Assembly: GCA_016713425.1 (NCBI GenBank)
Contig: JADJPE010000005.1
Location: forward strand, 5,437,532 to 5,501,531
Direction of reading: 5' to 3'
Length of the DNA: 64,000 bases
From: Deltaproteobacteria bacterium
GTDB lineage: Bacteria > Myxococcota > Kuafuiibacteriia > Kuafuiibacteriales > Kuafuiibacteriaceae
Below are positions 15,556 to 30,076 of the stretch, piece by piece. The position numbers and the translations under genes were made by a program. The notes under the pieces were generated by a model. It saw only the letters and a program-made list of their open reading frames with translations. It made no database searches and was not told the DNA's origin. How positions within the stretch are numbered: position 1 is the stretch's first letter; each line of letters opens with the position of its first letter.

Positions 15556-18111
15556 TCAGAGGTCCGTCGACATCGAGATCGTCCCGAAGACCCAGCAACC
15601 CGGCTGCGGATATGGAAATTGGGTACTCCCGCCCTGATACCACCGCGAGCCGAAGAGATTGTAGACCCAGAGCGAAACGCCAAGCCCTGGGAGGAATGCA
15701 TTCTCCGCCCGAACCCCGACATCCGCGAGCAACAGATCAGGCTCCGAATTCGCGACGTTATCGATACGATTCGGCCGGTTCTGTGAAACGCGCAGGATCG
15801 GCGACTGCCGAGCCCCCACGTGCCGAAGGTGTAGGCTGACCCAGGCGTCGTCGAGGATGCTGGAGATCGGATTCACGTCGACAATCAGATTCCCGTAGAA
15901 CATGGGAACATTCCACAAACGATGGTCACCATCTTGCGCGTTCACGATCGGGCGCGTCGACTGGCGATCGAAGGCCGTGTACTCCTCCACATCCGTGACG
16001 ACGAAGACGGTATAGTTCCCCCGAATGCGGTACCAATCTCCAATGAACGCAATCTCGTCTTCGAGGCTGACCGAATTCACAATGCCCGCGTTGTTGTAGT
16101 TCGACTCGCCGGCGGCCGCGTTCGGAATCCGGTAGATACCATCGCGAAGGTTGCTGTACGAAATATTGAGCGTATTGACGAAGCGTCGCTCGAGAAGACG
16201 CAACGTCGGTGTCAACGAGACCGATCGCATCCGTTCGGGTCGAAGGTTGTACGCTCCCGTGTAAGCCTGCAACGAGCTATATCGATACCAGTACGGACTA
16301 TCGACGAACGCATCGGAGTACGAAAGACTCACATCGAGCGCATCATTGGCCGTAACGATGACCGCTGCTCGCGGACTGAGAACCACGATGTCATCTTGCT
16401 CCGGCGGTTCGGAGGCGGCCGAACCATCGTTGTTTCGGCGCTCGCGATAGTCGAGCCGCCCGCCGATGTTGAGGAGAACGGGATCAGACAGGCGGTGTTT
16501 CAGTTGAACAAAGGCCGAATAGGTGCCCTCCCGCCCGGTGAACAACACGCGCTTGCGCGTTTCGTCGGCGAAGACATCGAAGTCGCCAACGCCCGAAGGG
16601 AGCGCACTGTCTTGCAGCCACCACACATCGAGCTGAGCACCGGCGAGGACAGTTCCACGACCGAACCCACCGAGATCGTAGTCATAGATGCCTTGTAGGA
16701 TCGCTTGATAAGCATCCTCCGTCCACGTGAGCCAGATCTGACTATTGTCGACCAGCGGCAGCGGCGGAGGGCCCATCGTATCGACATCCCATCCGGGCGG
16801 TGCCGTCCGGTTCCCGACCAGGACGCCCTCAACGCTCGAATGATCCCAAGCGGTCTTGACGGATATCTTCAACGACGTATTCAAACGACGCGACCACTCG
16901 GCGCCAAAGGACATCGTCCGCATCCCTAGCCCCGTCCCCACGCCGTTGAAGGTCCGGATCTTGTCGTAGTCGTAGAGATCGCCCGTTCGTCCACTCGATG
17001 AATAGGACTCGGTCAGCTTCTCGAAACGAGACTGCCCAAAGACGGACAGATCTCCCGCCCGAAGCCGCAGCCCTACATCATGATTGAGCGGAACTTTGAC
17101 CGCTCCCACGTACAGATTCCCGGAACGTGGTTGCTCAGTACCGAGGTCTTGAACCCAGTCGTCTGCGGCCGCGATCTGAACGCGTTCGCCCTTGGCTCGG
17201 TAGAGTTGGCCATAGAATACAACATCGCTCCACTCGTTGAATCGGCGCCCAAACGTGGCTTCGCCCAGCCATTGACCAAAGTTGCCCGTGCCGATCCGAA
17301 GCTTGGCCGCATTGATGTCGCCGCCGTCCTTGGTCACGATGTTGACCACGGCCGTCAACGCTGCGTTCCCATAAACTGAAGATCCGGGCCCACGCAGGAC
17401 CTCGATCTGCTTGACCTTGTCGGGATTGATGCTGATCCCGAACCCGGGCGCGGCTGTTCCATAGGCACGTTGGTTCAGTCGGTGCCCGTCGAGCATCACG
17501 AGAATCTTCTGCTGCGAGGACGCATAGATTCCGCGCATCGCGACGTTGTATTCGTTGTGGTCGATGATGCTCGTCATGCCTGGGACATAGGCGACGAGGA
17601 CATCCAACAGCGTTCGACCGCCGACGGCACGAATCATGTCGTCGGTAATGACCGTGACCGGGACCGGAGCCTCCCGTAACGGCTCACGCTGACCCGACGC
17701 CGTCTCCACCGAAATCGGGAGCTTCAGGAGCTCGCCCAGCGAGAGATCGACCAAGTCCTCCGCCTCATAGTTGGCGTCCTCGTCTTCGCCCTCATCCCCG
17801 CCTTCGCCTTCATCGCCGCCCTCGCCCGCAACCTCAACCTCGCCGCTGCCTCCGCGGACTCCGCTGCCTCCGCGGACTCCGCTCGCTTCGCGAGCGTCAC
17901 GAGCTTCACGAGCTTCGGCCCCTTCCCCAAGCGCCTGACTGCTTGTCTGGACCGAGCTGAGCGCAGGGGGCCCCTCGTCGCCCCAGGCAGCCTCCGGATA
18001 CGCCGAGACCGCGGGAACAAGAAGCAGGCACGCGCCGAGCCCCGCTCCGATCATCGGCCGAGGACAACGTCCGGACGTCGGCCTGGCCGCCCAATTATTC
18101 ACTCCGCGCAT
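15556..18111 (-). CDS. TonB-dependent outer-membrane receptor
   Basis: Signal peptide, an acidic Gly-rich low-complexity N-terminal extension and a TonB-box region (DLVDLSLGELLKLPISVETASGQ). The plug domain is recognisable (LLDVLVAYVPGMTSI...RGPGSSVYGNAALTAVVNIVTK) and is followed by a long barrel region. Confidence 0.85.
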   Translation of the reverse strand: MRGVNNWAARPTSGRCPRPMIGAGLGACLLLVPAVSAYPEAAWGDEGPPALSSVQTSSQALGEGAEAREARDAREASGVRGGSGVRGGSGEVEVAGEGGDEGEGGDEGEDEDANYEAEDLVDLSLGELLKLPISVETASGQREPLREAPVPVTVITDDMIRAVGGRTLLDVLVAYVPGMTSIIDHNEYNVAMRGIYASSQQKILVMLDGHRLNQRAYGTAAPGFGISINPDKVKQIEVLRGPGSSVYGNAALTAVVNIVTKDGGDINAAKLRIGTGNFGQWLGEATFGRRFNEWSDVVFYGQLYRAKGERVQIAAADDWVQDLGTEQPRSGNLYVGAVKVPLNHDVGLRLRAGDLSVFGQSRFEKLTESYSSSGRTGDLYDYDKIRTFNGVGTGLGMRTMSFGAEWSRRLNTSLKISVKTAWDHSSVEGVLVGNRTAPPGWDVDTMGPPPLPLVDNSQIWLTWTEDAYQAILQGIYDYDLGGFGRGTVLAGAQLDVWWLQDSALPSGVGDFDVFADETRKRVLFTGREGTYSAFVQLKHRLSDPVLLNIGGRLDYRERRNNDGSAASEPPEQDDIVVLSPRAAVIVTANDALDVSLSYSDAFVDSPYWYRYSSLQAYTGAYNLRPERMRSVSLTPTLRLLERRFVNTLNISYSNLRDGIYRIPNAAAGESNYNNAGIVNSVSLEDEIAFIGDWYRIRGNYTVFVVTDVEEYTAFDRQSTRPIVNAQDGDHRLWNVPMFYGNLIVDVNPISSILDDAWVSLHLRHVGARQSPILRVSQNRPNRIDNVANSEPDLLLADVGVRAENAFLPGLGVSLWVYNLFGSRWYQGGSTQFPYPQPGCWVFGTISMSTDL

Positions 18112-18146: not shown

Positions 18147-18839
18147 CTACTCCACGACCTCGGCCAGGCGCAAAAAGGCCGCACCAAAGTCAGCACGAAT
18201 CCGCCGAGCAGCCGGCAGATTCACGAGAATTGCGGGATTCTTCCCCTTGGCCACCACGCCAATCGTTATGCCCTTCTCCACGTACGATCGCTGCCCCGCA
18301 AGCGTTGGGGCCTCGACCTTCGCGGCCGCGGCGAGAATCTCTTGCAGCGAATCGTCGAGACCCGGGCAGACATACACGACGGTTGCCTTCGCCTTCGCGA
18401 GCTCCACGTCCAACGGCGTCTTGAACGGAACCGACACGAAACGAACCTTCAAGTCACGGATCGTTATATTTCCAGCGCGCTGAAAGGCCCCCAACATCTC
18501 GGTGTACCGCTGTACCGAGGTGCTCGAGCTGGGTTCGTAGACGATCGCGACGACAATCTCCGAGAGTGATCGCTGCACGAGGTTTCGGTCATACCCGATC
18601 GCCTTCAGATGGATCGCAGCCTCCAGAGCTGCGTCAACCTCTCCGCGGGATTTCGCGACGGCCTGCAACGGGATCCAAACAAGAACCGCCGCGATCCCCA
18701 GCGCCACGGCGACGCCTCGCGTTCTCCGAACCCCCAACGACGTCACGTCTCCCCCGGGGCCATCCAGGCGCGCAAACGCCACCCCTTCCCGACCGCAAAG
18801 ACCTAACATGCGCTCAGGGCACCGTCGAGGATGCGCCAC
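18147..18839 (-). CDS. YfiR-like periplasmic protein (DUF4154 family); start probably internal, at the signal peptide VALGIAAVLVW
   Basis: The C-terminal half (TLAGQRSYVEKGITIGVVAKGKNPAILVNLPAARRIRADFGAAFLRLAEV) follows the YfiR/DUF4154 pattern (LLIGEQ..F...G.I.F.L.GNKVRFEIN...K..GL.IS..LL.L). A hydrophobic signal segment is present near the N-terminus. Confidence 0.6.
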   Translation of the reverse strand: MAHPRRCPERMLGLCGREGVAFARLDGPGGDVTSLGVRRTRGVAVALGIAAVLVWIPLQAVAKSRGEVDAALEAAIHLKAIGYDRNLVQRSLSEIVVAIVYEPSSSTSVQRYTEMLGAFQRAGNITIRDLKVRFVSVPFKTPLDVELAKAKATVVYVCPGLDDSLQEILAAAAKVEAPTLAGQRSYVEKGITIGVVAKGKNPAILVNLPAARRIRADFGAAFLRLAEVVE

Positions 18840-18999: not shown

Positions 19000-19551
19000 G
19001 TGTCCAACACGAGCGGAGAAGAACGCTGGGTCGAGCTCGCAGAGCGCTACGTGCTGCGCTGCACTCCCGAGCTCTTTACAGCCTACGGAATGGCGATTGA
19101 AGGCAAGACTTCGTCGAGAGTCTCCTTCGACTCCGATTCTCTGGTCGGCGTCGCGGGATTCGTCGGCGATGTATGCGGTATTCTTTCGCTCCGCATCGAC
19201 GCTGCGGTTGTCGCCGCTTGCCACCCTATCCAAAAGGATGCCGCGCCCAATCGACGCATGCTCTTCGACTGGACAAGCGAGCTTGCGAATCAGCTCGTCG
19301 GGCGAATCAAGCTGCGGCTCGGGAACCACGGAATAAACTTCCGAGTGAGCGCTCCGATCGCCCTCGATGGTGCGCGAATGCGTTTCGTGGGTGCGAACGG
19401 GCACACATGCCGTGCCAGCTTCGACACCGGAACCGGCGATCTCGACGTGTGGGTCGACGCAGAACTCCGGAAGTCTGTCACATGGTCCGAAGCATTCTTC
19501 CGCGATGACCTATCCGATCCCAACGTCGAAGGCACGGTGATCTTCCTATGA
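19000..19551 (+). CDS. CheX/CheC-like phosphatase-fold protein (putative)
   Basis: A 183-aa ORF containing D-x3-E-x2-N-x21-P (DWTSELANQ...SAP), a near match to the CheC/CheX D/S-x3-E-x2-N-x22-P motif. Its stop overlaps the start of the downstream CheY-like gene. Confidence 0.45.
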   Translation: MSNTSGEERWVELAERYVLRCTPELFTAYGMAIEGKTSSRVSFDSDSLVGVAGFVGDVCGILSLRIDAAVVAACHPIQKDAAPNRRMLFDWTSELANQLVGRIKLRLGNHGINFRVSAPIALDGARMRFVGANGHTCRASFDTGTGDLDVWVDAELRKSVTWSEAFFRDDLSDPNVEGTVIFL

Positions 19552-19928
19552 CGACAAAGAAGGTCATGGTCGTCGACGACTCGCACACGGTGCAGGCGCT
19601 CGTCTCGTCGGCGTTTGCGAACCATGGATTCAGCGTCATCTGTGCGTCTGACGGCATGGACGCGATCGAGAAGTTGTCGATGCACGACGACGTGGTGCTC
19701 ATCTTCTGCGACGTCAACATGCCTCGGATGAGCGGCCTCGAGATGGTCAGTGAAGTCAAACGCATGCAGAAGTACGTCGATATTCCGGTGGTCATGCTTA
19801 CAACAGAAGGCCGTCCGGAGCTCATGCGCCGCGCGAAGGAGGCAGGCGCAAGTGCATGGATTGTCAAACCATTCAAACCGGAACAGCTCGTCGCGGTTGT
19901 GAAGAAGCTCGTTGAACGAACAGGCTAG
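19548..19928 (+). CDS. single-domain CheY-like response regulator
   Basis: A 126-aa receiver domain (VMVVDDSHTV...IFCDVNMPRMSGLE...VMLTTEG...KPF) with the acidic pocket and phospho-acceptor Asp intact. Confidence 0.85.
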   Translation: MTTKKVMVVDDSHTVQALVSSAFANHGFSVICASDGMDAIEKLSMHDDVVLIFCDVNMPRMSGLEMVSEVKRMQKYVDIPVVMLTTEGRPELMRRAKEAGASAWIVKPFKPEQLVAVVKKLVERTG

Positions 19929-19939
19929 ACGATACAGTC

Positions 19940-22069
19940 ATGAATGAGAACCGCCCCCCGCTCGTCCTACTCGTCGCGCCCACGCCCTCGCCGACCCTCG
20001 AGCGGGCCCTGGCTTCGACCGGACTCCGGGTCGTACACTCGAACGAACCGCGCGAAATCCTCGAGAAGCTCACGGAGCTCGACATTCGCCTGATCGTCGT
20101 GGACGGCCGACGATTCCCCCGAGGCGCCCAAGAAGTCGCCACGCTCCTCCATGAGGGCATGCCGGAGAACACGCTTCCAACCATCGTGGTCGTCGACGAC
20201 ATCGACGCTGCGATCGAGATCTTCGGATCTTCGTCCGCCGTCGAAATTCTCGCCGACGAGCGTCTGCTCGTTCACGCCGTCGGGCGCTCTCTGAAGACGC
20301 AGAAGGTTCACGAAGACCGACGACGGGCCGAGACGCGCTTCTCTCGCGCACGCCTCATGGCGGGTTTCGCGAGTTGGGAGTGGAGCCTCGAAACCAATCG
20401 GTTCGCCTGCGACCTCGAGCTCCTCGAGATCTTCGACTGCGGACCGATCCGCGGCTCCGTGCAAGTCGAAGACCTTCTCGGGCAAGTCCACCCGAGCGAC
20501 GCCGCGTTGGTTCGCACGGCTTTCGAGAATCGACGACCTCACCAGATCGAGTATCGCCTGTCGTCGACCAGCGCTCGCCCTATCCGTACGGTGCTTCAGG
20601 AAGCAGAGCTCGTCCAAGATCAGCCGAACGGCGAGGTCCGACTTCTCGGAACCGTTCTCGACATTTCGGAGCTGAAGGACGCCCAGACCCGCATCGCGCG
20701 TCTCGTGTACTTCGACAGCCTCACCGGGCTCCCGAATCGAGCCTATTTGAACGAGCATCTCGCACGAGTCATCGGGGCGGCCCAACGCAACCAGGAGCGG
20801 GTGGCCGTCATGGGGCTCGATCTGGACCTATTCAAACGCGTCAACGACACCCTCGGCCATGCGGCCGGGGATCTTCTGCTCCGAGAGGTCGCCAACCGCA
20901 TCAGTCGTGCGATTCGCCACGGGGACTCCGTTGTCGCGAGCGGTCATGGTTCGGTCGATCTTAAGCCAACAACCTCATCGACGACGGGCGTCGACCGTGA
21001 GAACACCGCCGTTCGTCTGGGCGGCGATGAGTTTATCATTATTCTGAATCGCCTCAACGCGCCCGAAGACGCAGAGGTGGTCGCACGAAGAATCGCCGAC
21101 CGGCTTTCAAAGTCTGTCGTCATCGAGGGCGCCGAAGTCTTCGTGAGTTGCAGTATCGGGATCTCGCTCTTTCCCGAGAACAGCGACTCGCCGGAGGAAC
21201 TTCTCAAGCAGTCCGATGCCGCAATGTACGAAGCCAAAGAAAAGGGGCGTAACACCTTTCAGTTCTTCTCCGCCTCGATCCACGAACGCGCCATGCGACG
21301 GGCCAAGCTCGAGAACGGCCTACGCGGTGCGCTCGAAAAGGATGAATTGCGCCTCGTATACCAACCCAAGGTGAAGCTTTCCACGGGCGAGACCGTCGGG
21401 GCGGAGGCATTGCTTCGTTGGACGCACCTCGGCGAGGCGATATCCCCCGGCGAATTCATTCCGGTCGCCGAAGATCGTGGCCTCATCGTGCCCATCGGAG
21501 AATGGGTGCTTCGCCACGCATGCGCCCAGATTCACGCTTGGACGCTTGCGGGGCGATCGATCCATGTCTCGATCAATGTGTCTTCGCGCCAATTTCGCGA
21601 GTCTGATTTCGTCGACAACGTGGCGCGCATCCTGCACGAGACAGGCGTCCGGCCCGACCTCGTGGAACTCGAGATCACCGAAACTTGCATCATGCAGACC
21701 TCAGAACGAGCGACTCGGACGTTGGAGCGCCTTAAGGCACTCGGGGTCACGATCGCCGTCGACGACTTCGGGACGGGCTACTCATCCCTCAGCTATCTGG
21801 GTCGGCTCCCGATCGATACGCTGAAGATCGACGTTGAATTCGTAAGAAGTGTCGTGACGAATGCATCCTGTCGCGCGATCACGTCGGCGATCATTGCGCT
21901 CGGGCGCACGCTCGGTCTTCAAATCGTCGCCGAGGGCGTCGAGTCAAAGAAGCAGATCGACTATCTCCTCCAGCAGGGCTGTTCCTTTGCGCAAGGATTC
22001 GCGTTCAGCCGCGGGATCCCACCCGAGGAGCTGCGCTCGGCGTATAAGGCTCAGCCGGAGGACGCATGA
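19940..22069 (+). CDS. REC-like-PAS-GGDEF-EAL protein (bifunctional c-di-GMP cyclase/phosphodiesterase candidate)
   Basis: The N-terminal receiver-like fold lacks the usual DD pair. A PAS region follows. The GGDEF motif is intact (VRLGGDEFIIILN). The EAL domain is intact (GAEALLRW...DDFGTGYSSLSYL...KID). Confidence 0.9.
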   Translation: MNENRPPLVLLVAPTPSPTLERALASTGLRVVHSNEPREILEKLTELDIRLIVVDGRRFPRGAQEVATLLHEGMPENTLPTIVVVDDIDAAIEIFGSSSAVEILADERLLVHAVGRSLKTQKVHEDRRRAETRFSRARLMAGFASWEWSLETNRFACDLELLEIFDCGPIRGSVQVEDLLGQVHPSDAALVRTAFENRRPHQIEYRLSSTSARPIRTVLQEAELVQDQPNGEVRLLGTVLDISELKDAQTRIARLVYFDSLTGLPNRAYLNEHLARVIGAAQRNQERVAVMGLDLDLFKRVNDTLGHAAGDLLLREVANRISRAIRHGDSVVASGHGSVDLKPTTSSTTGVDRENTAVRLGGDEFIIILNRLNAPEDAEVVARRIADRLSKSVVIEGAEVFVSCSIGISLFPENSDSPEELLKQSDAAMYEAKEKGRNTFQFFSASIHERAMRRAKLENGLRGALEKDELRLVYQPKVKLSTGETVGAEALLRWTHLGEAISPGEFIPVAEDRGLIVPIGEWVLRHACAQIHAWTLAGRSIHVSINVSSRQFRESDFVDNVARILHETGVRPDLVELEITETCIMQTSERATRTLERLKALGVTIAVDDFGTGYSSLSYLGRLPIDTLKIDVEFVRSVVTNASCRAITSAIIALGRTLGLQIVAEGVESKKQIDYLLQQGCSFAQGFAFSRGIPPEELRSAYKAQPEDA

Positions 22070-24261
22070 GGCCAAACGCGCACCGTCTGCGCTTCCATTC
22101 GGTCGGATGGAAAATCGCCGGTGCGACCGTAGTGGTGGTGACCGCCCTCGCCGCCATCGTGCACGTCGCCGTGAGCCGACGGCACCGTGAGTACATCAAG
22201 GCCGCCAAACAAGACGCGGCCAGGATGGTCATTCAATTGACCGCCGCTGGTCTATCAGCACCCGTTGTCTTTGGCGACACTCAGACCACGCAAGAACAAC
22301 TCGATCTTCTCGAGTCCAATGAAGATGTTCTCTACGCAGGCGCATGGCTGGTGAGCAACGACAAACCGCCCATGCCCACCGAACGGCTCGGCCTATACTA
22401 CCGGCAGGCCCGGACTCCGAGGCGCGGGCATCCTCCGGCATCGCCACGAGAACGCACCACGGAACAAGTCATGAAACCCGACCGCGTACCGGAGCAGATC
22501 GAGCAAAGCTACGGTCAGATGTTGATCTCGACGGCGCCGATCGTCGATCTGAGCGGGCGGACCGTCGGGGTCGTGCAAATCGCCTTCTCTTTGGCGCGCG
22601 AGCGCGCGGCCGATGAGGCAGGCGAACACCAGGCGATCATCTTTTCGGCAACTCTTGCAACTTTTCTTGCCTCGATCCTTCTCCTCTTCGCGCGTTTTGC
22701 AATCATAAGGCCACTACACATGCTTTCGAACGCCGCAAATCGCCTGGAGCGCGGCGAAAGGGCAACCATCGACGTGCAATCGAAGGACGAGATCGGCGAC
22801 CTCGCGACCGCTCTACGTGCGATGTCGAGCGCCGTGCAAGACCGGGAAGCGAAGCTCAAAGCGCGCAACAACGACATGCGATTGATCCTCGACAACGCCG
22901 GCGAGGGTTTCGTGACGGTCACATCTCACGGAAAGATGGCGGACGAACGTTCGAAGATGATCGACGAATGGTTCGGCCCACCCGCGGATGGCGCAACTTT
23001 CTTCGACTTCATAGCAACCGTCGCCGGACAAGAGATCGCCGACTGGATGACGCTCGGATGCGAAGCCCTTCACGATGGATTCCTGCCCCTTCAGGTCGCG
23101 ATCGACCAGCTTCCCAAGCAGTTCTCGCATGACGGGCGTTATTTCGCGCTCGAGTACCGCCCCATCTTGCAGGAAGATGGCACATTTCAGGCGATCTTGG
23201 TGGTCATCCGAAACATCACCGCAGAGGTCGAGTTCAAACGCTCGGAGGCGCTCCAACGAGAGGCCCTTGCCCTATTCCAACACTACGTGCGCAACCGCAT
23301 CGGTCTCATCGATTTCTTCCGCGAATCACGCACCCTCGTCGATGCGATCATCATGCACCGAAAAGACGAGCAAGCGATGCGCCGCAACATCCACACACTC
23401 AAGGGCAACGCCGCCTTGTTTGGCGTCGAACGCATCGCAGAGTATTGCCATCGCCTCGAGTCGAAGTGGTCCGAAGATGATCGGCACCCGAGCACATCCG
23501 ATCTTCAAGAGCTGTCGAATCGATGGCGATCGGTCGAGGAGGTCGTCAGCAACCTGGGCGCCGGCACGGAATCTGAGATTATCATGAGCCGAGAAGAACA
23601 CGCGCGCCTCCTCGCGGCCATTCGGTCACGGCAACCGCACGCCGAACTCGAATCCGCCCTGGGCGCTCTCGCCTACGAGCCGGCGGCGCGACGACTCGCC
23701 GCGATGCGGGAGCAAGTCCTGGCGCTCGGCGAGCGATACGGAAAGCCCGAGATTCAGGTCGAGATCAAGCCCACGCCCCTGCGACTTCCTTCTGCTCGTT
23801 GGGCAAGATTCTGGCCATCGTTGGTTCACATCTTTCGCAACGCGGTCGACCACGGTCTCGAAGACGCGGATGAACGAAGTCGGCTGGGGAAGCCGCCCCA
23901 CGGACGCATCGTGCTCTCGTTCGAGAATGTCGGAGACAAGGTCGTCTTCGCCTTCGAAGATGACGGCCGAGGCATCGCGTGGACCAAGCTCGCGGAGCGT
24001 GCCGCCGAGATCGGGCTCCAGACGACCACCAAGGCGGAACTTGAACAGGCTCTCTACTCGGGCGCGCTCTCCTCGAGGGGAGAGGTCACGGAGCTTTCGG
24101 GTCGAGGCATCGGAATTTCAGCCGTCAATGCGACCATTCAGTCCCTGGGGGGCACGATGTCCATTGCCAGCGAGAGTGGCCACGGAACATCCATCCGGTT
24201 CGCCTTTCCCAGCTCGATGCTGAAGGATGATGCACCGACTCAGGAATCCTCTGCCACCTGA
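22066..24261 (+). CDS. membrane sensor kinase with periplasmic domain-HAMP-PAS-Hpt-HATPase architecture (CheA-like phosphorylation on the Hpt domain; no DHp/H-box or CheW domain)
   Basis: Two TM segments flank a periplasmic domain of about 150 aa. HAMP and PAS follow, then an Hpt motif (HTLKGNAALFG). The HATPase has an N-box (IFRNAVDHG), G1 (DDGRGI) and G2 (GRGIGIS). The start overlaps the stop of the upstream gene. Confidence 0.8.
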   Translation: MRPNAHRLRFHSVGWKIAGATVVVVTALAAIVHVAVSRRHREYIKAAKQDAARMVIQLTAAGLSAPVVFGDTQTTQEQLDLLESNEDVLYAGAWLVSNDKPPMPTERLGLYYRQARTPRRGHPPASPRERTTEQVMKPDRVPEQIEQSYGQMLISTAPIVDLSGRTVGVVQIAFSLARERAADEAGEHQAIIFSATLATFLASILLLFARFAIIRPLHMLSNAANRLERGERATIDVQSKDEIGDLATALRAMSSAVQDREAKLKARNNDMRLILDNAGEGFVTVTSHGKMADERSKMIDEWFGPPADGATFFDFIATVAGQEIADWMTLGCEALHDGFLPLQVAIDQLPKQFSHDGRYFALEYRPILQEDGTFQAILVVIRNITAEVEFKRSEALQREALALFQHYVRNRIGLIDFFRESRTLVDAIIMHRKDEQAMRRNIHTLKGNAALFGVERIAEYCHRLESKWSEDDRHPSTSDLQELSNRWRSVEEVVSNLGAGTESEIIMSREEHARLLAAIRSRQPHAELESALGALAYEPAARRLAAMREQVLALGERYGKPEIQVEIKPTPLRLPSARWARFWPSLVHIFRNAVDHGLEDADERSRLGKPPHGRIVLSFENVGDKVVFAFEDDGRGIAWTKLAERAAEIGLQTTTKAELEQALYSGALSSRGEVTELSGRGIGISAVNATIQSLGGTMSIASESGHGTSIRFAFPSSMLKDDAPTQESSAT

Positions 24262-24574: not shown

Positions 24575-25315
24575 GTGATACGCGCCATTCGTGCCGGGAG
24601 CACCACGCTCTGGGTCGCGAAGTCCCTGCTCAAGGTCAGCAAGCAAGGAATCGGTTCCGGGTCGGTGACCAGCGTTCCCCTGGGCATCAACTGTGGCAGC
24701 GACTGCACCGAGAGCTACGAAGCGGCGACGTCCGTTGTGCTGAAGGCCCAAGCCGCCTCGGGTTCGGAGTTCTCGGGTTGGAGTGGCGGCGGGTGCAGCG
24801 GGAACGAGGCAACCTGCACAGTAGCGATGACCGGAGCCCGTACCGTCACCGCCGAGTTCGCGCTTGCAACCAAGGTGTCTTTTTCCCCGGGAACCATTCT
24901 GATCGAGCAGAACCAATATGCCGAGACCGCCAGGTTCAGGCTGTACATGCAGGCCGATGGAAATCTCGTACTGTACCGGAAGTCGGACGCCACCGTCCTC
25001 TGGTCGAGTGGAACCAGCGGACGAACCTGCAACGACAGCAACGTCTGCAAAGCGAAGTTCCAGGGCTCGTGGTCACCGCCGAAGACGCACGAGTCGCCCT
25101 GCGGTCTACCGTCTAGCGTCTACGCGTCAGGGTCGCGCGGAGCATCACCTTTGATCCCTGCGTATCGGCCTCGGTCGCGACCGCTGTCCGTCCGCGGTCC
25201 ATCACCAACCTGTGCTCCTGAACCATGGGGTCGATCCCGGTGGGAAGGCCGCTGCTCAGGACTTGGACGACCGAAACCGCAAAGTCTCCATCGGTTAAGA
25301 CGCGCTCACACATAG
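24575..25315 (+). CDS. fragmentary protein with a divergent InlB B-repeat domain and a partial bulb-type (mannose-binding) lectin motif; possibly a pseudogene or frameshifted
   Basis: GSGSVTSVPLGINCGSDCTESY...GSEFSGWSGGGCSGNEATCTVAMTGARTVTAEF matches the InlB B-repeat pattern. RLYMQADGNLVLYRKSDATVLWSSGT matches one B-lectin subdomain. Only one of the expected three subdomains is present, no signal peptide is seen, and the C-terminus is junk-like. Confidence 0.3.
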   Translation: MIRAIRAGSTTLWVAKSLLKVSKQGIGSGSVTSVPLGINCGSDCTESYEAATSVVLKAQAASGSEFSGWSGGGCSGNEATCTVAMTGARTVTAEFALATKVSFSPGTILIEQNQYAETARFRLYMQADGNLVLYRKSDATVLWSSGTSGRTCNDSNVCKAKFQGSWSPPKTHESPCGLPSSVYASGSRGASPLIPAYRPRSRPLSVRGPSPTCAPEPWGRSRWEGRCSGLGRPKPQSLHRLRRAHT

Positions 25316-25378: not shown

Positions 25379-28300
25379 GTGGTTGGCTCGCAGCCAACCA
25401 TGAAACGCCTCGTCGCATCGCGTCGAAATGACCTCCGCCTCGCCGTGATGTCGAGCTGGCTGTTCGACACCGCGACCCAAGGCTCGGTCCTTGTCGTGGG
25501 CACGACCCGAAGGGCTGCCGACGACTTTGCGCGCGACATTCTGCGCGCGGACGAACGGGGGCGCATAGGTGTCGTCCGGCTCACGCTTCGCCAGCTCGCA
25601 AGAGAGCTTGCTACGCGCGATCTAGCCCGGAGCAAGAAGGGCACCGCCGGTTTCCTCGCTTGCGAAGCGCTCGCCGCGCGATCCGCGCACCAGGCGCAAT
25701 TCCACGGAGGCCTTCGAGCCTTCGCAGCCGCCGCGAAAAGCCCAGGATTCGCGCGGGCGCTTGCCGAGACCATTCGCGATCTGCGTGGGGAAGGAATTGG
25801 CCCGTCCGAACTCGCGCCGCTCGGCCCCGCTGGCGCCGACCTCATGACACTGCTCAAGGCCTACGAAGCAGCGCTCGCCGCCCACAGGCTCGCCGATCCG
25901 AGCGATGTCTTCGAGATCGCGACGACCGTCGTCGAGCGGGGCGAACATCCGTTCGTTGCACGGCCGATCCTCCTCCTCGACGTTGCACCGGCAACGCGCG
26001 CCGAAGAACGCTTCGTCGGCGCACTCAGCAATGCGAGCCCTTCGGTCCTGGCCGGCGCGCTTCGCGGCGACGACGACGGCATCGCCCGCCTCGAAGCGGC
26101 GCTCGGCGTTCGCGCCGAGTACCTCGAAGATATTGACCTCGTCGATCCGGTCCGCGTTCCATCGGACGGCCCGGATGAAAGCCGCCGCGGGCGGGCCCTC
26201 GAGCGGGCGCAAGCAAGGACCTTCAGGGCGCTTCCCCGCGACGAGGTCGCGGTCGTTCCGCCGGAGGCGGAGCCAGAGGACCACTCGTTCGAGCTGTTCG
26301 CCGCAAGCGGCGAGTCGGCGGAGGTGCTCGAGATCGCGCGTCGCATCCTTGTCGCCGCGCGCCAAGAAGGCGTCGCATTCGACGAGATGGCCATCCTCCT
26401 GCGCCACCCGTCCATCTACGAACCGCTCATCGAAGAGACGTTGCGGCGCGCGGACATACCGGCCTTCTTCACCCAAGGGACCCGGCGACCGCAAACGAGC
26501 GGACGTGCGCTCCTGGCCTTGCTGGCGTGTGCGGGGGAGCGCTTGTCGGCCCGGCGGTTTGCGGAGTACCTGTCCCTCGGGCAGGTACCTCCGCTCGACG
26601 CTGAGGCCAAACCGAAACCAAGGACCGTGCCTTGGGTCGCGCCCAAGGATGATATCCAGCTCGTCTTTGCGACCGATGTGTTCGAGCCCCACGAACAAAC
26701 CGACGAACAAACCGACGAACAAGCGGTCCCCGAAGCCTCGGAGCGAGATCCCCGAGGCTCGCCTCACCCCAATATTCGGCCGCATGGTCGACCCGAGGCG
26801 TCAACGCGACGAGACAACGACGAAGGCCCCGAGAGCGCCGGGACGCTCCACACACCGCGGTCTTGGGAGCATCTGCTCGTCGATGCAGCCGTCATTGGGG
26901 GCCGCGATCGGTGGGTGCGCCGTCTTCGCGGCCTCGAACAGGAGTTCCAGGCCCAGATTCGGGCGCTCGAGGTCGAGGATCCGGTGCGCGCACGCAAGAA
27001 GCAGGATGATCTCGAACGTCTTCGAAACCTCGAAGGCTTCGCGCTCCCAGTCATCGATTTCTTGGCCGCGATGCCGAGCGCGGCGCCCTGGGGTGTATGG
27101 CTCGACCACCTCGATGCGCTCGCCGGCATGGCGCTTCGACATCCGGAACCCGTGCTTGCGGTCCTGGCGGAGCTGCGCCCGATGGCGGACGTCGGACCGG
27201 TCACGCTTCGTGAGGTCCGCGAGGTCCTGACGCGGCGCCTAAAGAACGAACGCGTACCCACCGGCGGCCAACGTTTCGGTCGCGTCTTCATCGGCCATCT
27301 CGAGGAAGCCGCGGGCCGGGCCTTTCACACGGTCTTCGTGCCCGGCCTTACTGAGGGTCTCTTTCCCGAGAAGGCCTTTGAGGATCCTTTGCTCCTCGAT
27401 CAGGCGCGAATCGAAATCGCCGGGCCGTCCTTCGCACTTCGCCCGCAGCGCGTGCGCCACGAGCGGCACATGCTGAGGCTCGGCCTCGGCGCAGCACGCG
27501 AGAAGCTCGTGGTCTCCTATCCAACGGTCGACTTGGCCGAGGGCAAGGGCCGCGTTCCGTCCTTCTACGCGCTCGAGATCCTTAGGGGTGCCGAGGGTCG
27601 CGTCCCGTCGCTTCGGGGTCTCGAACAACGCGCCCAGTCATCGGCGTCGAACCGGCCGGGCTGGCCGGCCCCCAGATCGCCAGAGACCGCGGTCGACGAT
27701 GCGGACTACGATCTTTCCATCATCGGTGCACTTCGCGATCTACCTTCCGATGAGATCGGAGGACGAGGCCGCTATCTCATCGAAGGCCACGACGGCGCAC
27801 CCCCGAACGACAGCCTCGTTCGAAACCTGCGTGCACGCGCACAGCGCTTTCGACATCGCTTCTCCGGCGCGGACGGTCTTTGGCTCGACGACGACAACGC
27901 ACATCTCGTCGCGGCGCTTGCCGCGCGCCGTCCGACGGAGCGCGCCTATTCTGCAACATCGCTTCAGACCTTTGCCGCATGTCCCTATCGATTCCTGCTC
28001 CACGCCCTCCATGGCCTAAGGCTACGCGAGGATTTCACGACGGTCGAGTCGCTCGATCCGCTGACACGCGGCAGCATCTACCACGACGTCCAGTTCGATC
28101 TATTCTTCGCGCTCAAAGCGCAAGGGCTCTTGCCCGTCAACGAGGCGCGCCTCGAACCCGCGACCCGAGTCCTCGACCGGGTCGTGCGCGAGGTCTTCGC
28201 TCGTTATGAAGAACGACTCGCGCCCGCGATCCCTCAGATCTTTGCTCGCGAAACGCAGGCGCTGCACCAGGACATCAACCAGGCCCTGCACGTCGAGGCC

Positions 28301-28864
28301 GCGCGGAGCAGCGACTGGCGTCCCATCCACGCCGAGCTCGCGTTTGGGCTGGCCGACGAGCTCGAACGACGCGACCCCGAGAGCCGGCCAGAACCGATCC
28401 AGATCCTTTCTCGCTTCCTCGTGCGTGGCAGCGTGGATCTCGTCGAAGAGCACCACACGTCGGGTCATCTTCGCATCACAGATCACAAGACGGGGCGCCT
28501 CCCGAAGCCACCACCCCGCTACGTGGGAGGCGGCGAGCATCTGCAGCCGCTCCTTTATGGTCTCGCCATGGAGGCCCGCTTGGGCAAGCCCGTCCAAAGC
28601 GGACGTCTGAGCTACGGGACCGAGCGCGGACAATTCGACGCGATCGAGGTCGAGATCAACGCGTCGTCGCGTGGGTCCTTGGGTCAGGTTCTCGAAACGA
28701 TCGACGACGCCGTCGCGAGTGGTCGCTTGCCGGCTGCGCCCCAACTCGGAAAATGCAGCTACTGCGACTATCGACCCGTTTGCGGAACGCACGAGGAGCA
28801 ACGGGTGCAGCGCAAGGATATGAGTCAACTTGCCGCGCTCGAGGCGCTGCGCGCGCTCCGGTAG
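25379..28864 (+). CDS. addB: AddB-type helicase-nuclease subunit (RecB-family nuclease with Fe-S cluster; degenerate N-terminal ATPase)
   Basis: A 1161-aa ORF. The C-terminal nuclease motif (ITDHKTG) and the Cys cluster (GKCSYCDYRPVCG, CxxCx5C) are as in AddB. The N-terminal P-loop is degenerate (VVGTTRRAAD). The gene lies upstream of an AddA-like gene. Confidence 0.8.
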   Translation: MVGSQPTMKRLVASRRNDLRLAVMSSWLFDTATQGSVLVVGTTRRAADDFARDILRADERGRIGVVRLTLRQLARELATRDLARSKKGTAGFLACEALAARSAHQAQFHGGLRAFAAAAKSPGFARALAETIRDLRGEGIGPSELAPLGPAGADLMTLLKAYEAALAAHRLADPSDVFEIATTVVERGEHPFVARPILLLDVAPATRAEERFVGALSNASPSVLAGALRGDDDGIARLEAALGVRAEYLEDIDLVDPVRVPSDGPDESRRGRALERAQARTFRALPRDEVAVVPPEAEPEDHSFELFAASGESAEVLEIARRILVAARQEGVAFDEMAILLRHPSIYEPLIEETLRRADIPAFFTQGTRRPQTSGRALLALLACAGERLSARRFAEYLSLGQVPPLDAEAKPKPRTVPWVAPKDDIQLVFATDVFEPHEQTDEQTDEQAVPEASERDPRGSPHPNIRPHGRPEASTRRDNDEGPESAGTLHTPRSWEHLLVDAAVIGGRDRWVRRLRGLEQEFQAQIRALEVEDPVRARKKQDDLERLRNLEGFALPVIDFLAAMPSAAPWGVWLDHLDALAGMALRHPEPVLAVLAELRPMADVGPVTLREVREVLTRRLKNERVPTGGQRFGRVFIGHLEEAAGRAFHTVFVPGLTEGLFPEKAFEDPLLLDQARIEIAGPSFALRPQRVRHERHMLRLGLGAAREKLVVSYPTVDLAEGKGRVPSFYALEILRGAEGRVPSLRGLEQRAQSSASNRPGWPAPRSPETAVDDADYDLSIIGALRDLPSDEIGGRGRYLIEGHDGAPPNDSLVRNLRARAQRFRHRFSGADGLWLDDDNAHLVAALAARRPTERAYSATSLQTFAACPYRFLLHALHGLRLREDFTTVESLDPLTRGSIYHDVQFDLFFALKAQGLLPVNEARLEPATRVLDRVVREVFARYEERLAPAIPQIFARETQALHQDINQALHVEAARSSDWRPIHAELAFGLADELERRDPESRPEPIQILSRFLVRGSVDLVEEHHTSGHLRITDHKTGRLPKPPPRYVGGGEHLQPLLYGLAMEARLGKPVQSGRLSYGTERGQFDAIEVEINASSRGSLGQVLETIDDAVASGRLPAAPQLGKCSYCDYRPVCGTHEEQRVQRKDMSQLAALEALRALR

Positions 28865-28897: not shown

Positions 28898-30076
28898 ATG
28901 ACATGCGCCGATGGGAATGCACTGGGTCTAGCGCTGCTGCACGAACTGGAAGACGCCCTTCGCACGATCCTGACCGGACGCTACGCGTACGAGGATCGCA
29001 CGCCGCCCTCCGACCCGGAAGCAGACGAGACGCTCGCCCCCGGTCGACCATCGCGTTTGCCCACGGCTTTGGAATGGATCCGCGACGTCTTTGTCCCGCG
29101 CCAGAGGGCTCAGCTCGACCGAACGCGTTTCGTCGCGCCCGAGCCTTGGGTTTCCGCGATCGTAAGCCGGATCAACCGAACGGACACGTCCGAGTTTCTT
29201 CGACGGTTGGACCGCTATCAAAACTGGCTGATGTGCAACGCGGAGAACCGCGGTTCGGCGAGCCCAGCTGGCGCCGATTCCAACGCCGAATCCGCGTCAG
29301 GGTCCGGGCCCGAGTCGATCCAGCAGCCCACGCCCATCCTCGACGCCCTCGACGCCCTCGACACCCTCGACACCCTCGACACCCTCGACACCCTTGACAT
29401 CCTCGACACCCTCGATGCCATCGAAGCCCTCGAAGCGGAGCTCGCCGCGCTGGGTTGCCATCAGCGGCCGTTGGTACCAGCGTGCCACGAGGAGGCTTCG
29501 CATCTTGGTGTCGAGGATTATGTCGCCGCTGTCGTCCTGCCCGCCGCTCGCGCCCACGCCCACGCTCGCGCCCGCGGCGAAGATCCGCCCTCCGCAAGCG
29601 CGGTCGTGTGCGGTCTCGACGGACTATGCCAGGAGCTATCGCACTTCGAATCGGGGCGGCGTCTCGAAGCATTGCTCCGCACGCTGGCCCACTCGGTCGG
29701 CGCACCGCTGCCCGAAGCCGTACCGAAAGGACCTGCGCACTACGGGATCGTCACATTCTCGCCGGCGTTGGTCGACCGCACCATCCATGAGGTCGTCGTT
29801 GCCCGGCAGAGGACCCTGAAGATCCCCGGCTACGCGCGCGGGAAGGCGCCGTCCGCGGTGGTGCTGGCCGCACACTGGAACGACATTTCCGAAGAGGCAA
29901 CGCGCCGTCTGCTGCTTTGTTTGGGAGGCGAGCAGGTCTTCTTCGCTCTCGAACCGCTTGCGCAAGGGGTTCCGTTTCGGGTCGCCCTCGAGTTGCTCTT
30001 CGACGATCCGCACAAGTTCGAAGCCCGACTCGCAGAGGTCGGTGCCGAAGTCTGCGCGGAGTTCGAAATGATCTGA
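28898..30076 (+). CDS. hypothetical protein with a (D-A/T-L)n repeat, encoded between addB and addA
   Basis: A 392-aa ORF containing DALDALDTLDTLDTLDTLDILDTLDAIEALEAEL, encoded by a 9-bp tandem repeat (ctcgacacc)n at about 29340-29410. No recognisable domain. Confidence 0.45.
   Translation: MTCADGNALGLALLHELEDALRTILTGRYAYEDRTPPSDPEADETLAPGRPSRLPTALEWIRDVFVPRQRAQLDRTRFVAPEPWVSAIVSRINRTDTSEFLRRLDRYQNWLMCNAENRGSASPAGADSNAESASGSGPESIQQPTPILDALDALDTLDTLDTLDTLDILDTLDAIEALEAELAALGCHQRPLVPACHEEASHLGVEDYVAAVVLPAARAHAHARARGEDPPSASAVVCGLDGLCQELSHFESGRRLEALLRTLAHSVGAPLPEAVPKGPAHYGIVTFSPALVDRTIHEVVVARQRTLKIPGYARGKAPSAVVLAAHWNDISEEATRRLLLCLGGEQVFFALEPLAQGVPFRVALELLFDDPHKFEARLAEVGAEVCAEFEMI

Follow-up and report, generated by a model that had tools for sequence, protein, structure and literature searches.

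The kinase gene at the center of this locus, which lies in a 64-kb window (the whole stretch of DNA analyzed), raises the question of which histidine a membrane-bound sensor would use for phosphorylation when it carries an Hpt domain and an ATPase, while HisKA/DHp, P2, and CheW/P5 are not detected in its 731 aa. The product of the ORF is identical to NCBI MBK8013817.1, annotated as "Hpt domain-containing protein" in a Deltaproteobacteria MAG, and the ATG start codon shares an ATGA with the stop codon of the upstream gene. The original prediction described a membrane kinase with a HAMP-PAS-Hpt-HATPase layout, and both Pfam and an AlphaFold2 (AF2) model, a monomer prediction with a mean pLDDT of 84.9, bear this out. 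From the N-terminus, the order is TM1, a periplasmic domain of ∼150 aa, TM2, HAMP, a signaling helix, PAS, Hpt (with His443), and then a brief hairpin of helices that leads into an ATP-binding domain of the CheA type. AF2 folds residues 280-383 as PAS, 411-495 as a four-helix Hpt bundle, 509-534 as the hairpin, and 540-719 as a P4-like alpha/beta domain. The features are:

22066..24261, + strand: whole kinase gene, 731 aa (ORF, Pfam domains, AF2 model)
22108..22707, + strand: input module with TM1 (aa 15-37), periplasmic alpha/beta domain (aa 38-189, CHASE8-like), and TM2 (aa 190-214) (hydrophobic segments, AF2, weak CHASE8)
22699..22839, + strand: HAMP (aa 212-258; Pfam PF00672, E 4.5e-9)
22843..23214, + strand: signaling helix and PAS (aa 260-383; AF2 PAS secondary-structure pattern, pLDDT ∼90)
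23296..23550, + strand: P1-type Hpt four-helix bundle (aa 411-495; Pfam Hpt aa 416-486, E 3e-11; AF2)
23590..23667, + strand: vestigial P3 that links Hpt to P4, a pair of short helices (aa 509-520, 525-534) (AF2, pLDDT 89-92)
23674..24222, + strand: CheA P4-type ATP-binding domain (aa 537-719) with N/G1/F/G2/G3 boxes (phmmer, Foldseek, family profile)

A search for homologues with the same domain order, which the original prediction proposed as a check, returned 1,449 clusters at E<=1e-30, and all 149 other top representatives match the Hpt-to-P4 module in its entirety. In the 66 full-length members, a PAS domain lies upstream of the Hpt-P4 module, while the N-terminal sensors differ. None of PF02895, PF01584, and HisKA appears among 25 of the 27 Pfam families found in these 66 members. 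By sequence comparison, the kinase is a member of a large conserved family and not a one-off.

The Hpt domain contains the most plausible phosphorylation site. The HTLKGNAALFG motif, correctly recognized at the outset as an Hpt motif, occupies aa 443-453 (nt 23392-23424), with the codon of the predicted phosphoacceptor His443 at 23392-23394. The AF2 helices span residues 411-430, 435-451, 455-470, and 477-495 and form a four-helix bundle. It bears the CheA P1 signature of R-3, K+3, H+19, and E+22, and G+4 is likewise conserved in the family as in CheAs. The His, K+3, and E+22 do not vary in the family, and 129 of 140 members have H+19, a pattern that CheAs show as well; K446, H462, and E465 are predicted to complete the CheA P1 catalytic set. 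The closest Hpt structures in the PDB are the CheA P1 domains 2ld6 and 1tqg, which outscore other HPt domains, and NCBIfam gives weak matches to the Hpt regions of BarA and TorS. H443, T444, K446, G447, and E465, together with the N/G boxes, are the same in every sequence of two alignments (30 and 66 sequences), and the only invariant histidines from PAS to the C-terminus are H443, H588, and H596. As judged from these alignments, the conservation of the kinase features among homologues is far beyond chance. The unorthodox or hybrid kinases ArcB, BarA, and TorS also possess an Hpt with an HxxKG motif; however, the HPt of these proteins is C-terminal to DHp, CA, and REC and does not serve as the autophosphorylation site in any of them, whereas the Hpt studied here lies upstream of the ATPase in a protein that lacks both REC and DHp, and it resembles CheA P1 more closely.

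The ATPase is also of the CheA type. The claim of a complete HATPase holds: the Pfam HATPase_c match covers aa 585-716 (E 6.5e-13), with the N box at 588-599, G1 at 632-637, an F-like box at 663-670, G2 at 678-685, and G3 at 705-709, all of them intact and invariant throughout the family. The domain matches Thermotoga maritima CheA P4 with phmmer (1e-25) and CheA P4 with Foldseek (TM ∼0.8, 30-34% identity), the family profile matches CheA P3P4/P4 structures with E-values as low as 2e-53, and an hhalign comparison between the family and 47 CheAs has a probability of 100% (E 1.5e-57). The likeness to CheA is thus stronger than first seen, since it extends to a P4-type ATPase and the CheA P1 residue set.

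The kinase differs from CheA, a class II histidine kinase with the order P1-P2-P3-P4-P5, in what surrounds these two domains. CheA contains P2 and a P5/CheW domain. The kinase has no Pfam match to CheW (PF01584), H-kinase_dim (PF02895), or HisKA-type families even at E<=1, and its C-terminus lies only 12 aa past P4, too short a tail for P5; counted from the N box, 144 aa remain to the C-terminus versus 239-447 aa in CheAs. The predicted absence of P2 and P5 stands. The accompanying claim that P3 is missing stands in part: there is no PF02895 match and the linker is half of the P3 length (∼32 aa between Hpt and P4 versus a P3 span of 59-157 aa, median 65, in 70 CheAs), but a 26-aa hairpin (509-534) is left. 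With hhalign, the first hairpin helix falls on the start of CheA P3 helix 1 and the second on the last part of P3 helix 2; HMMER concurs for the second helix only, and the match of the first to P3 is ambiguous. We regard P3 as vestigial, reduced to a two-helix hairpin and not wholly gone. The Hpt His and the N box lie 145 aa apart in the kinase versus 229-586 aa in CheA; this spacing is fixed at ∼145 aa in the family, and 90% of the 140 representatives fall within 143-147 aa.

The hairpin, or alternatively the post-PAS helix (385-409), could be a DHp-like helix pair that is autophosphorylated as in a classical kinase, with the Hpt serving only a second step as in unorthodox kinases. The best Foldseek match to the whole chain is indeed a full-length model of WalK, mirroring the TM-HAMP-PAS-helices-ATPase layout, and the hairpin contains His512 and His525; in an 18-sequence family alignment, most sequences have His at one position of the hairpin. 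We nevertheless consider this reading improbable. No HisKA family is matched at E<=1, in line with the expectation of no DHp H-box; neither hairpin His is invariant in three family alignments, whereas H443 is the sole invariant His N-terminal to the N box; a relay would need a REC domain between ATPase and Hpt, and none is there; and the ATPase is of a type that acts on P1, with the Hpt bearing the P1-specific H+19 and E+22. The likeness to class I HAMP-PAS kinases of the WalK/VicK type consists of the order TM, periplasmic domain, TM, HAMP, PAS, helical phosphosite domain, and ATPase, and both probably dimerize via TM, HAMP, and coiled coil. Unlike these kinases, the protein lacks a HisKA/DHp H box and has a monomeric Hpt bundle as its predicted phosphosite and a CheA-lineage ATPase.

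The input half of the protein agrees with a sensor that spans the membrane. The two TM helices expected around a ∼150-aa periplasmic domain were located at aa 15-37 and 190-214, and in the AF2 model the periplasmic domain is a long helix leading into a beta-sheet. CHASE8 matches aa 47-96 weakly (E 3.6e-5, score 24.4, below the Pfam gathering threshold of 27), and the matches are clearer in relatives. HAMP was found in 34 of the 66 family members in a Pfam survey. The PAS_4 match is weak (aa 348-388). All 66 members share G281 and P350, and nearly all share L275, S296, W302, P341, Q348, and D383. Conservation at these positions places PAS in the conserved core of the family, which fits the originally proposed dimerization via HAMP and PAS.

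The genes next to the kinase suggest partners for it:

15556..18111, − strand: TonB-dependent receptor with a low-complexity N-terminal extension (Pfam Plug + TonB_dep_Rec_b-barrel)
18147..18839, − strand: YfiR/HmsC-like (DUF4154) periplasmic protein (Pfam DUF4154, E 2.6e-5)
19000..19551, + strand: CheX-like phosphatase, 183 aa (Pfam CheX, 32.1 bits vs cutoff 27)
19548..19928, + strand: CheY-like single-domain response regulator, 126 aa, MBK8013815.1 (Pfam Response_reg, 4e-26)
19940..22069, + strand: degenerate-REC, PAS, GGDEF, EAL protein, 709 aa (Pfam GGDEF 1.8e-45, EAL 5.9e-70)

The CheY-like receiver has all of the DD, D, T, and K residues, and it is the conserved neighbor of the family kinases, present in every close locus (L001, L086, L087, L002, and L004, where close orthologues adjoin the kinase) and in most of 14 further, more distant ones; we predict that it is the phosphoryl acceptor. 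The CheX-like gene overlaps the start of the receiver gene through an ATGA, and CheX was found in five loci, recurring in L001, L002 (twice), L086, and L010. The N-terminus of the GGDEF-EAL protein aligns to REC (hhalign probability 87%) without the acidic pair, T, and K. Its gene, whose stop overlaps the kinase start, has correspondingly placed orthologues in L001 and L086 and is translationally coupled to the kinase in all three loci; the protein is likely the c-di-GMP output. The DUF4154 score is marginal (24.8 bits vs a gathering cutoff of 24.9 bits), and this gene probably starts at a codon further downstream than the listed GTG. DUF4154 genes adjoin the kinase in L001 and L087, where a TonB-dependent receptor gene comes after the kinase, so that the two genes are linked in the window and in both of these loci. 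The YfiR-like protein is a candidate regulator of the periplasmic domain. The GGDEF-EAL and YfiR/TonB links are confined to the closest relatives, other members being found in other contexts, and the proposed output and input may not generalize.

Taken together, these data make it probable that the kinase is a class II (CheA-type) histidine kinase turned self-contained transmembrane sensor, most likely receptor-independent, autophosphorylating His443 and feeding a CheY/CheX/c-di-GMP circuit. A homodimer would be held together by TM, HAMP, the signaling helix, and PAS instead of P3. P4 would phosphorylate His443 on the tethered Hpt, with K446, H462, and E465 taking the parts of CheA K51, H67, and E70, and the sensor modules would gate the productive encounter of P4 and Hpt, standing in for the receptor/CheW/P5 array of CheA. 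The phosphoryl group would pass from His443 to the CheY-like receiver (19548-19928), from which CheX (19000-19551) would remove it. DHp kinases possess an intrinsic phosphatase activity that CheA-type kinases do not share, and for this reason we propose CheX for dephosphorylation; conversely, the separate CheX gene suggests that the kinase has no built-in phosphatase activity. The phosphorylated receiver may modulate the cotranslated GGDEF-EAL protein, in which case the output would be the c-di-GMP level. More speculatively, the YfiR-like protein, perhaps with the TonB-dependent receptor, might control the periplasmic domain by analogy to the control of the CHASE8-HAMP cyclase YfiN by YfiR, for which PMC2837407 and PMC4887326 offer a precedent. 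The YfiBNR (TpbB) system resembles the kinase locus, as proposed here, in its CHASE8-type periplasmic domain with HAMP, a YfiR-family gene next door, an outer-membrane partner, and a c-di-GMP output. The membrane component of YfiBNR is itself the diguanylate cyclase, whereas here a CheA-type kinase is proposed to act via a receiver on a separate GGDEF-EAL protein, and the putative outer-membrane partner is a TonB-dependent receptor instead of the OmpA-like lipoprotein YfiB.

With CheA, the kinase shares a P4-type ATP-binding domain, a P1-type Hpt (His/Lys+3/His+19/Glu+22) in which the predicted substrate His sits on a separate four-helix bundle and not on a DHp, and, as predicted partners, a CheY-like receiver and CheX phosphatase. 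Another reading is that the protein is a P1-P4 piece that works in a chemoreceptor array and borrows P3/P5 or CheW functions from other proteins, as the split CheA3/CheA4 pair does in Rhodobacter sphaeroides. In this pair, as in bipartite CheAs, P1 and P4 function outside the single-chain five-domain order (PMC10782961, PMC2924250). Although bipartite CheAs are on record (PMC10782961) and some relatives adjoin complete che operons (L002/L003, L004), we find array dependence more improbable still. CheA is said to be without any input domain (PMC10782961), whereas the kinase carries its own TM sensor, HAMP, and PAS; CheA3/CheA4 retain P5, CheA4 retains P3, and both act in receptor clusters, whereas the kinase has neither domain, with no P5 for docking on receptors or CheW, and would sense directly. 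The 64-kb window contains no CheW- or MCP-like ORF and, near the kinase, no CheR or CheB gene; the che operons beside relatives have a complete CheA of their own, and the receiver is the only conserved neighbor. Least credible is a protein without kinase activity or with reversed flow, in which nucleotide binding by P4 serves regulation only and the Hpt relays phosphate that originates from another kinase or returns from the receiver: pure phosphotransfer is a common Hpt role, but the five boxes are intact across the family, the P1-type catalytic helper residues are kept, and the His-to-N-box spacing is fixed at 145 aa, which points to constrained enzyme-substrate geometry.

Literature searches returned no description of a sensor-fused Hpt-P4 kinase family, and a 2023 survey of CheA left out proteins of this kind by definition. 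These findings indicate that the family of sensor-fused CheA-type kinases is large and apparently undescribed.

The kinase is encoded by a 731-aa ORF on the plus strand of the window (22066-24261), whose start codon forms an ATGA overlap with the stop codon of the preceding gene. The encoded sequence is the same as that of MBK8013817.1, an NCBI "Hpt domain-containing protein" from a 7.3-Mb Deltaproteobacteria MAG contig. The following features lie along it:

aa 15-37 and aa 190-214, hydrophobic segments flanking ~150 residues
aa 47-96, weak Pfam match to CHASE8 (24.4 bits, below the cut-off of 27)
aa 212-258, HAMP (Pfam, 4.5e-9)
aa 348-388, weak Pfam match to PAS_4
aa 416-486, Hpt (Pfam, 3e-11)
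aa 443-453, the sequence HTLKGNAALFG, which begins with His443, the predicted phospho-acceptor
aa 585-716, HATPase_c (Pfam, 6.5e-13)

The N, G1, F-like, G2, and G3 boxes form a complete set. An AlphaFold2 model made from 30 homologues (mean pLDDT 84.9) divides the chain as follows:

residues 13-68, TM1 continuing as a long helix in the periplasm
residues 72-175, periplasmic alpha/beta domain
residues 177-277, TM2, HAMP, and a continuous signalling helix
residues 280-383, PAS fold
residues 385-409, linker helix
residues 411-495, Hpt bundle of four helices, the second bearing His443
residues 509-520 and 525-534, two short helices (pLDDT ~90)
residues 540-719, ATP-binding alpha/beta domain

The original prediction had described a membrane kinase with a HAMP-PAS-Hpt-HATPase order, and the ORF, Pfam domains, hydrophobic segments, Hpt motif, and ATP boxes are all found where it placed them. 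Two of the checks it proposed bear this out: the domain HMM scan recovers HAMP, Hpt, and HATPase_c, and the structure prediction contains both the PAS fold and the four-helix Hpt bundle.

The Hpt of the query has the phospho-acceptor His and the helper residues of a CheA P1. R-3, His, Lys+3, Gly+4, His+19, and Glu+22 are each kept in 30/30 or 26/30 proteins of a first family set and in 138-140/140 or 129/140 of a second; the equivalent positions in CheAs score 46/46 or 42/46. We take the His, Lys+3, His+19, and Glu+22 to be the counterparts of H48, K51, H67, and E70 in E. coli CheA, which are required for P1 phosphorylation. The closest solved Hpt structures are the CheA P1 entries 2ld6 and 1tqg (~4e-9), while BarA-, YPD1-, and AHP-type HPt structures score worse (1e-5 to 2e-4). 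Judged by its sequence, the Hpt of the query is a P1-type domain.

The ATPase domain is specifically of the CheA P4 type. T. maritima CheA P4 matches the query at 1e-25 in phmmer, and Foldseek aligns ~30 P4 structures at a TM of ~0.8 and 30-34% identity. The family profile reaches 2e-53 against CheA P3P4/P4 chains, and a profile-profile comparison (hhalign) of the C-terminal 347 aa of the family with 47 CheAs gives a probability of 100% and an E of 1.5e-57. The query has a CheA-type HATPase_c, and the idea that this P4 is non-catalytic is unlikely given that every ATP box is invariant.

The original prediction had also held that the kinase lacks P3, and here it needs amending. PF02895 has no match in the query at E<=1, but a vestigial P3-equivalent stretch with partial P3 homology is kept. 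In hhalign, helix 1 of the short hairpin aligns with the very start of CheA P3 helix 1 and helix 2 with the very end of P3 helix 2, the middle of P3 being absent; HMMER supports this placement for hairpin helix 2 only. The P3-equivalent span is ~32 aa in the query versus 59-157 aa (median 65) in 70 CheAs, and the modeled hairpin helices are 12 and 10 aa long, where P3 is defined by two helices of ~26-28 aa or longer. The predicted absence of P2 and P5 stands. From the N box onward the query has 144 aa left, versus 239-447 aa in CheAs, and the protein ends 12 aa past P4, so that no room is left for P5; Pfam likewise finds no PF01584 (CheW) at E<=1. From the hairpin alignment, the short span, and the short tail, we conclude that P3 is vestigial and that P2 and P5 are absent.

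A DHp domain hidden in the kinase would make it a class I enzyme, with an H box just upstream of the catalytic domain. The query has no such box, as had been predicted: HisKA, HisKA_2, HisKA_3, HWE, and His_kinase are without a Pfam match at E<=1, and none of the histidines that lie between H443 and the N box is invariant in the family alignments. Since H443 is the sole invariant His upstream of the N box and there is no REC to serve a relay, we rejected a hidden DHp as unlikely. Dependence of the kinase on chemoreceptor arrays was rejected as unlikely too: P5 is absent, the protein bears its own sensor (TM helices, periplasmic domain, HAMP, and PAS) where CheA has no input domain and signals through MCP/CheW arrays, and che genes are not nearby, ad-hoc HMMs having detected no CheW- or MCP-like ORF in the 64-kb window.

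Berry, Andrianova, and Zhulin (2023) describe CheA as being without an input domain and report that all CheA homologues contain P1, P3, P4, and P5, with CheW detected in 100% (PMC10782961). Of this core the query keeps P1 and P4 only, with P3 vestigial. Two of the four domains that define a CheA are missing and the protein has its own input domain, so it should not be filed as a CheA; its His-to-N-box distance of 145 aa and its 144-aa tail place it in a family of PAS-Hpt-P4 sensor kinases, in which PAS, a P1-type Hpt, the short hairpin, and P4 make up one uninterrupted module that reaches the C-terminus and has a His-to-N-box distance of ~145 aa. As far as can be read from its sequence, the query works like a CheA catalytic core set in an ordinary sensor-kinase chassis, and the original interpretation of a direct transmembrane sensor with the Hpt His as phospho-acceptor is essentially right. 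The 2023 data set was collected through MiST and the CheW domain (PMC10782961), so proteins like the query were excluded from that census by construction. Public labels for family proteins read "Hpt domain-containing protein", "ATP-binding protein", or, by KEGG-style transfer, "CheA". In the full-text literature searched, whose coverage is incomplete and leaves novelty unproven, we found no description of a P3/P5-less or sensor-fused Hpt-HATPase or CheA-like kinase. A P. syringae census and a V. cholerae Rvv paper were judged irrelevant to the Hpt-HATPase architecture.

The homologue search proposed in the original prediction returned, in a first database search, ~30 proteins with the Hpt and HATPase_c composition of the query, all without PF02895 and PF01584; genuine CheAs rank below them and cover just 18-30% of the query. 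An exhaustive HMMER scan of aa 385-731 against 1.84 billion cluster representatives gave 1,449 clusters at E<=1e-30, of which the 149 other top representatives were inspected, the family size beyond 149 being an estimate. In 149/149 the whole Hpt-to-P4 module is matched as one stretch ending at the C-terminus, preceded by N-terminal extensions of 0 to ~1,600 aa. In 140 of the 149, His and N box lie 143-147 aa apart (5th-95th percentile), and a median of 151 aa separates the N box from the C-terminus. Aligning 66 full-length members shows that the PAS is kept as well, with G281 and P350 invariant, and that H443, T444, K446, G447, E465, and the ATP boxes are likewise conserved. Pfam finds Hpt and HATPase_c in 66/66 members, HAMP in 34/66, CHASE8 in 8/66 (with clearer matches than that of the query), and NIT, sCache/dCache, MASE6/7, DAHL, HNOBA, GAF, and CHASE4 in a few members each; H-kinase_dim, CheW, and HisKA are not among the 25 families listed, of 27, for these 66 members.

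A scan of GTDB genomes, keyed on a P4 motif that CheA shares, gave 80 loci, mostly ordinary CheA or ChpA genes, with ~14 P5-less kinases. Strict family members occur in Myxococcales MAGs, one Rubrivivax MAG, and one Aeoliella (Planctomycetota) MAG. Looser P5-less Hpt-P4 kinases with a spacing of 160-176 aa were also found, in Bdellovibrio sp. HCB-110 (PAS-PAS), Herbaspirillum rhizosphaerae (4HB_MCP-HAMP-PAS), Vitreimonas (MHYT), Oligoflexales (CHASE4-HAMP), and a Clostridiaceae MAG (GAF). Many family members (P0008-P0013, P0016-P0019, P0021, P0023, and P0025; alignment A1, columns ~100-470) have a ~200-aa polytopic membrane domain instead of the TM-periplasm-HAMP arrangement, for example at L004:8001-10049. 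This domain has several conserved histidines, the motif H.GQGP.QIEMHFYFF, and no Pfam family on record; we read it tentatively as a so far undescribed sensor domain of the membrane that perhaps binds a metal or haem. Giant members also exist (a 2,034-aa ORF at L008:1141-7245; P0220, 1,949 aa; P0186, 1,332 aa), in which >1,000 uncharacterised residues precede the PAS-Hpt-P4 module.

In a crude, unrooted neighbour-joining tree of P4 domains, the strict family groups apart from the CheAs and the broader P5-less kinases form a grade. Monophyly of the strict family is recovered in just 1/30 bootstraps, largely because the divergent member P0030 does not group with it. P0030 groups instead with P0092, an archaeal protein (Haloglomus litoreum 'CheA', 739 aa) with Hpt and HATPase_c alone on record, which may be a further P5-less lineage or a protein in which P3 and P5 were simply missed. 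That the PAS-Hpt-P4 kinases are an independent ancient class II branch, maybe close to the intermediate between classical sensor kinases and CheA, is a tentative and rather unlikely proposal; the alternative is a complete reversal of CheA to a one-protein sensor. If they are close to that intermediate, the short hairpin would be ancestral, and CheA would have lengthened it into P3 afterwards.

The kinase is the final gene of a tightly packed set, with two divergent genes upstream:

15556-18111, minus strand, TonB-dependent receptor
18147-18839, minus strand, YfiR/HmsC-like DUF4154 protein (24.8 bits against a cut-off of 24.9)
19000-19551, CheX-like protein
19548-19928, CheY-like receiver with complete active-site residues
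19940-22069, 709-aa protein with intact GGDEF and EAL
22066-24261, plus strand, kinase

ATGA overlaps join the CheX/REC and GGDEF-EAL/kinase pairs. The N-terminus of the GGDEF-EAL protein aligns with receivers (hhalign probability 87%) and is probably a pseudo-receiver, because the acidic pair, Thr, and Lys are missing. A consensus scan of 18-25 kb for promoters and terminators gave no excess over shuffled sequence. The N-terminal ~140 aa of the TonB-dependent receptor (about nt 17690-18111) are a long low-complexity extension rich in Gly, Glu, and Ala, in which repeats such as GVRGGS and GEGGDE occur, ahead of the Plug domain (from aa 144); this extension might make contact with the kinase or with the YfiR-like protein. 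Directly downstream of the operon comes a 246-aa ORF (24575-25315, +) whose InlB B-repeat (Flg_new_2) domain is divergent. Beyond it lie a 1,161-aa AddB-like protein (25379-28864, +) with a C-terminal PD-(D/E)XK/Cas4-like nuclease domain and an acidic EQTDEQTDEQ insert mid-protein, and a 392-aa ORF (28898-30076, +) without a Pfam match that contains the peptide repeat DALDALDTLDTLDTLDTLDILDTLDAIEALE near nt 29330-29440.

Parts of this neighbourhood recur around closely related kinases. One homologous locus (L001) has CheX, REC, GGDEF-EAL, kinase, TonB-dependent receptor, and DUF4154; a second (L086) has CheX, REC, GGDEF-EAL, and kinase; and a third (L087) has REC, kinase, TonB-dependent receptor, and DUF4154. 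The locus of the homologue P0007 (L002/L003) has a further Hpt-P4 kinase together with a REC-GGDEF protein and two pairs of CheX and REC, and at that of P0008 a REC lies immediately upstream of the kinase. An HMM made from the receivers of these close-homologue loci shows that most of 14 further loci have a small stand-alone REC close to the kinase, the best scoring 155 bits. In L002/L003 (1-18295), the set with its two Hpt-P4 kinases lies beside a complete che operon (CheA, CheW, MCP, CheR, CheD, CheB) and one kinase comes after a periplasmic-binding-protein gene, which suggests a multi-kinase network around CheY-like receivers.

The query combines this domain order, a CheA-type Hpt and ATPase, and a vestigial P3, with no DHp, P2, or P5, and has a conserved CheY-like neighbour. 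In the mechanism that we propose, the kinase would dimerise via TM, HAMP, signalling helix, and PAS, and P4 would phosphorylate His443 on the closely tethered Hpt; the fixed 145-aa distance between His and N box speaks for a constrained arrangement of enzyme and substrate. Gating of this reaction would fall to the sensor modules, in place of a receptor/CheW/P5 lattice. The conserved adjacency of REC genes points to the CheY-like receiver as the likely recipient of the phosphoryl group, and CheX would reset the receiver, consistent with a kinase without DHp-type phosphatase activity. The output in the window operon would be c-di-GMP turnover by the GGDEF-EAL protein that is translated along with the kinase. 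The adjacent YfiR-like protein may regulate the periplasmic domain, on the model of YfiR and YfiN. There, the periplasmic repressor YfiR controls the CHASE8-HAMP membrane protein YfiN, and an outer-membrane partner in turn titrates YfiR (PMC2837407, PMC4887326). The window may resemble YfiBNR in having a CHASE8 periplasmic domain in the membrane component and a YfiR-family gene beside it, though its CHASE8 and DUF4154 matches are sub-threshold, and these marginal matches make YfiR-like control the weakest step; a DUF4154 gene is linked to the kinase in L001 and L087 as well.

CheA is the textbook kinase that is unable to sense anything itself, and its activity is thought to need P3-mediated dimerisation and P5/CheW coupling to receptor arrays. 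The kinases described here form a large natural family that couples P1 and P4 straight to HAMP, PAS, Cache, NIT, CHASE, MASE, or GAF sensors, a whole class II kinase branch that current definitions miss and that is annotated loosely as "CheA" or "Hpt domain-containing protein". They offer a minimal, soluble-domain-sized system for the gating of P4 access to P1, and they bear on the origin of chemosensory kinases from, or their reversion to, two-component sensors. If true, the independent-branch reading would show how ordinary sensor domains can directly switch a CheA-type P1/P4 core in the absence of P3, P5, CheW, and arrays. The family also points to a CheY/CheX module outside chemotaxis, which in the window apparently sets c-di-GMP levels.
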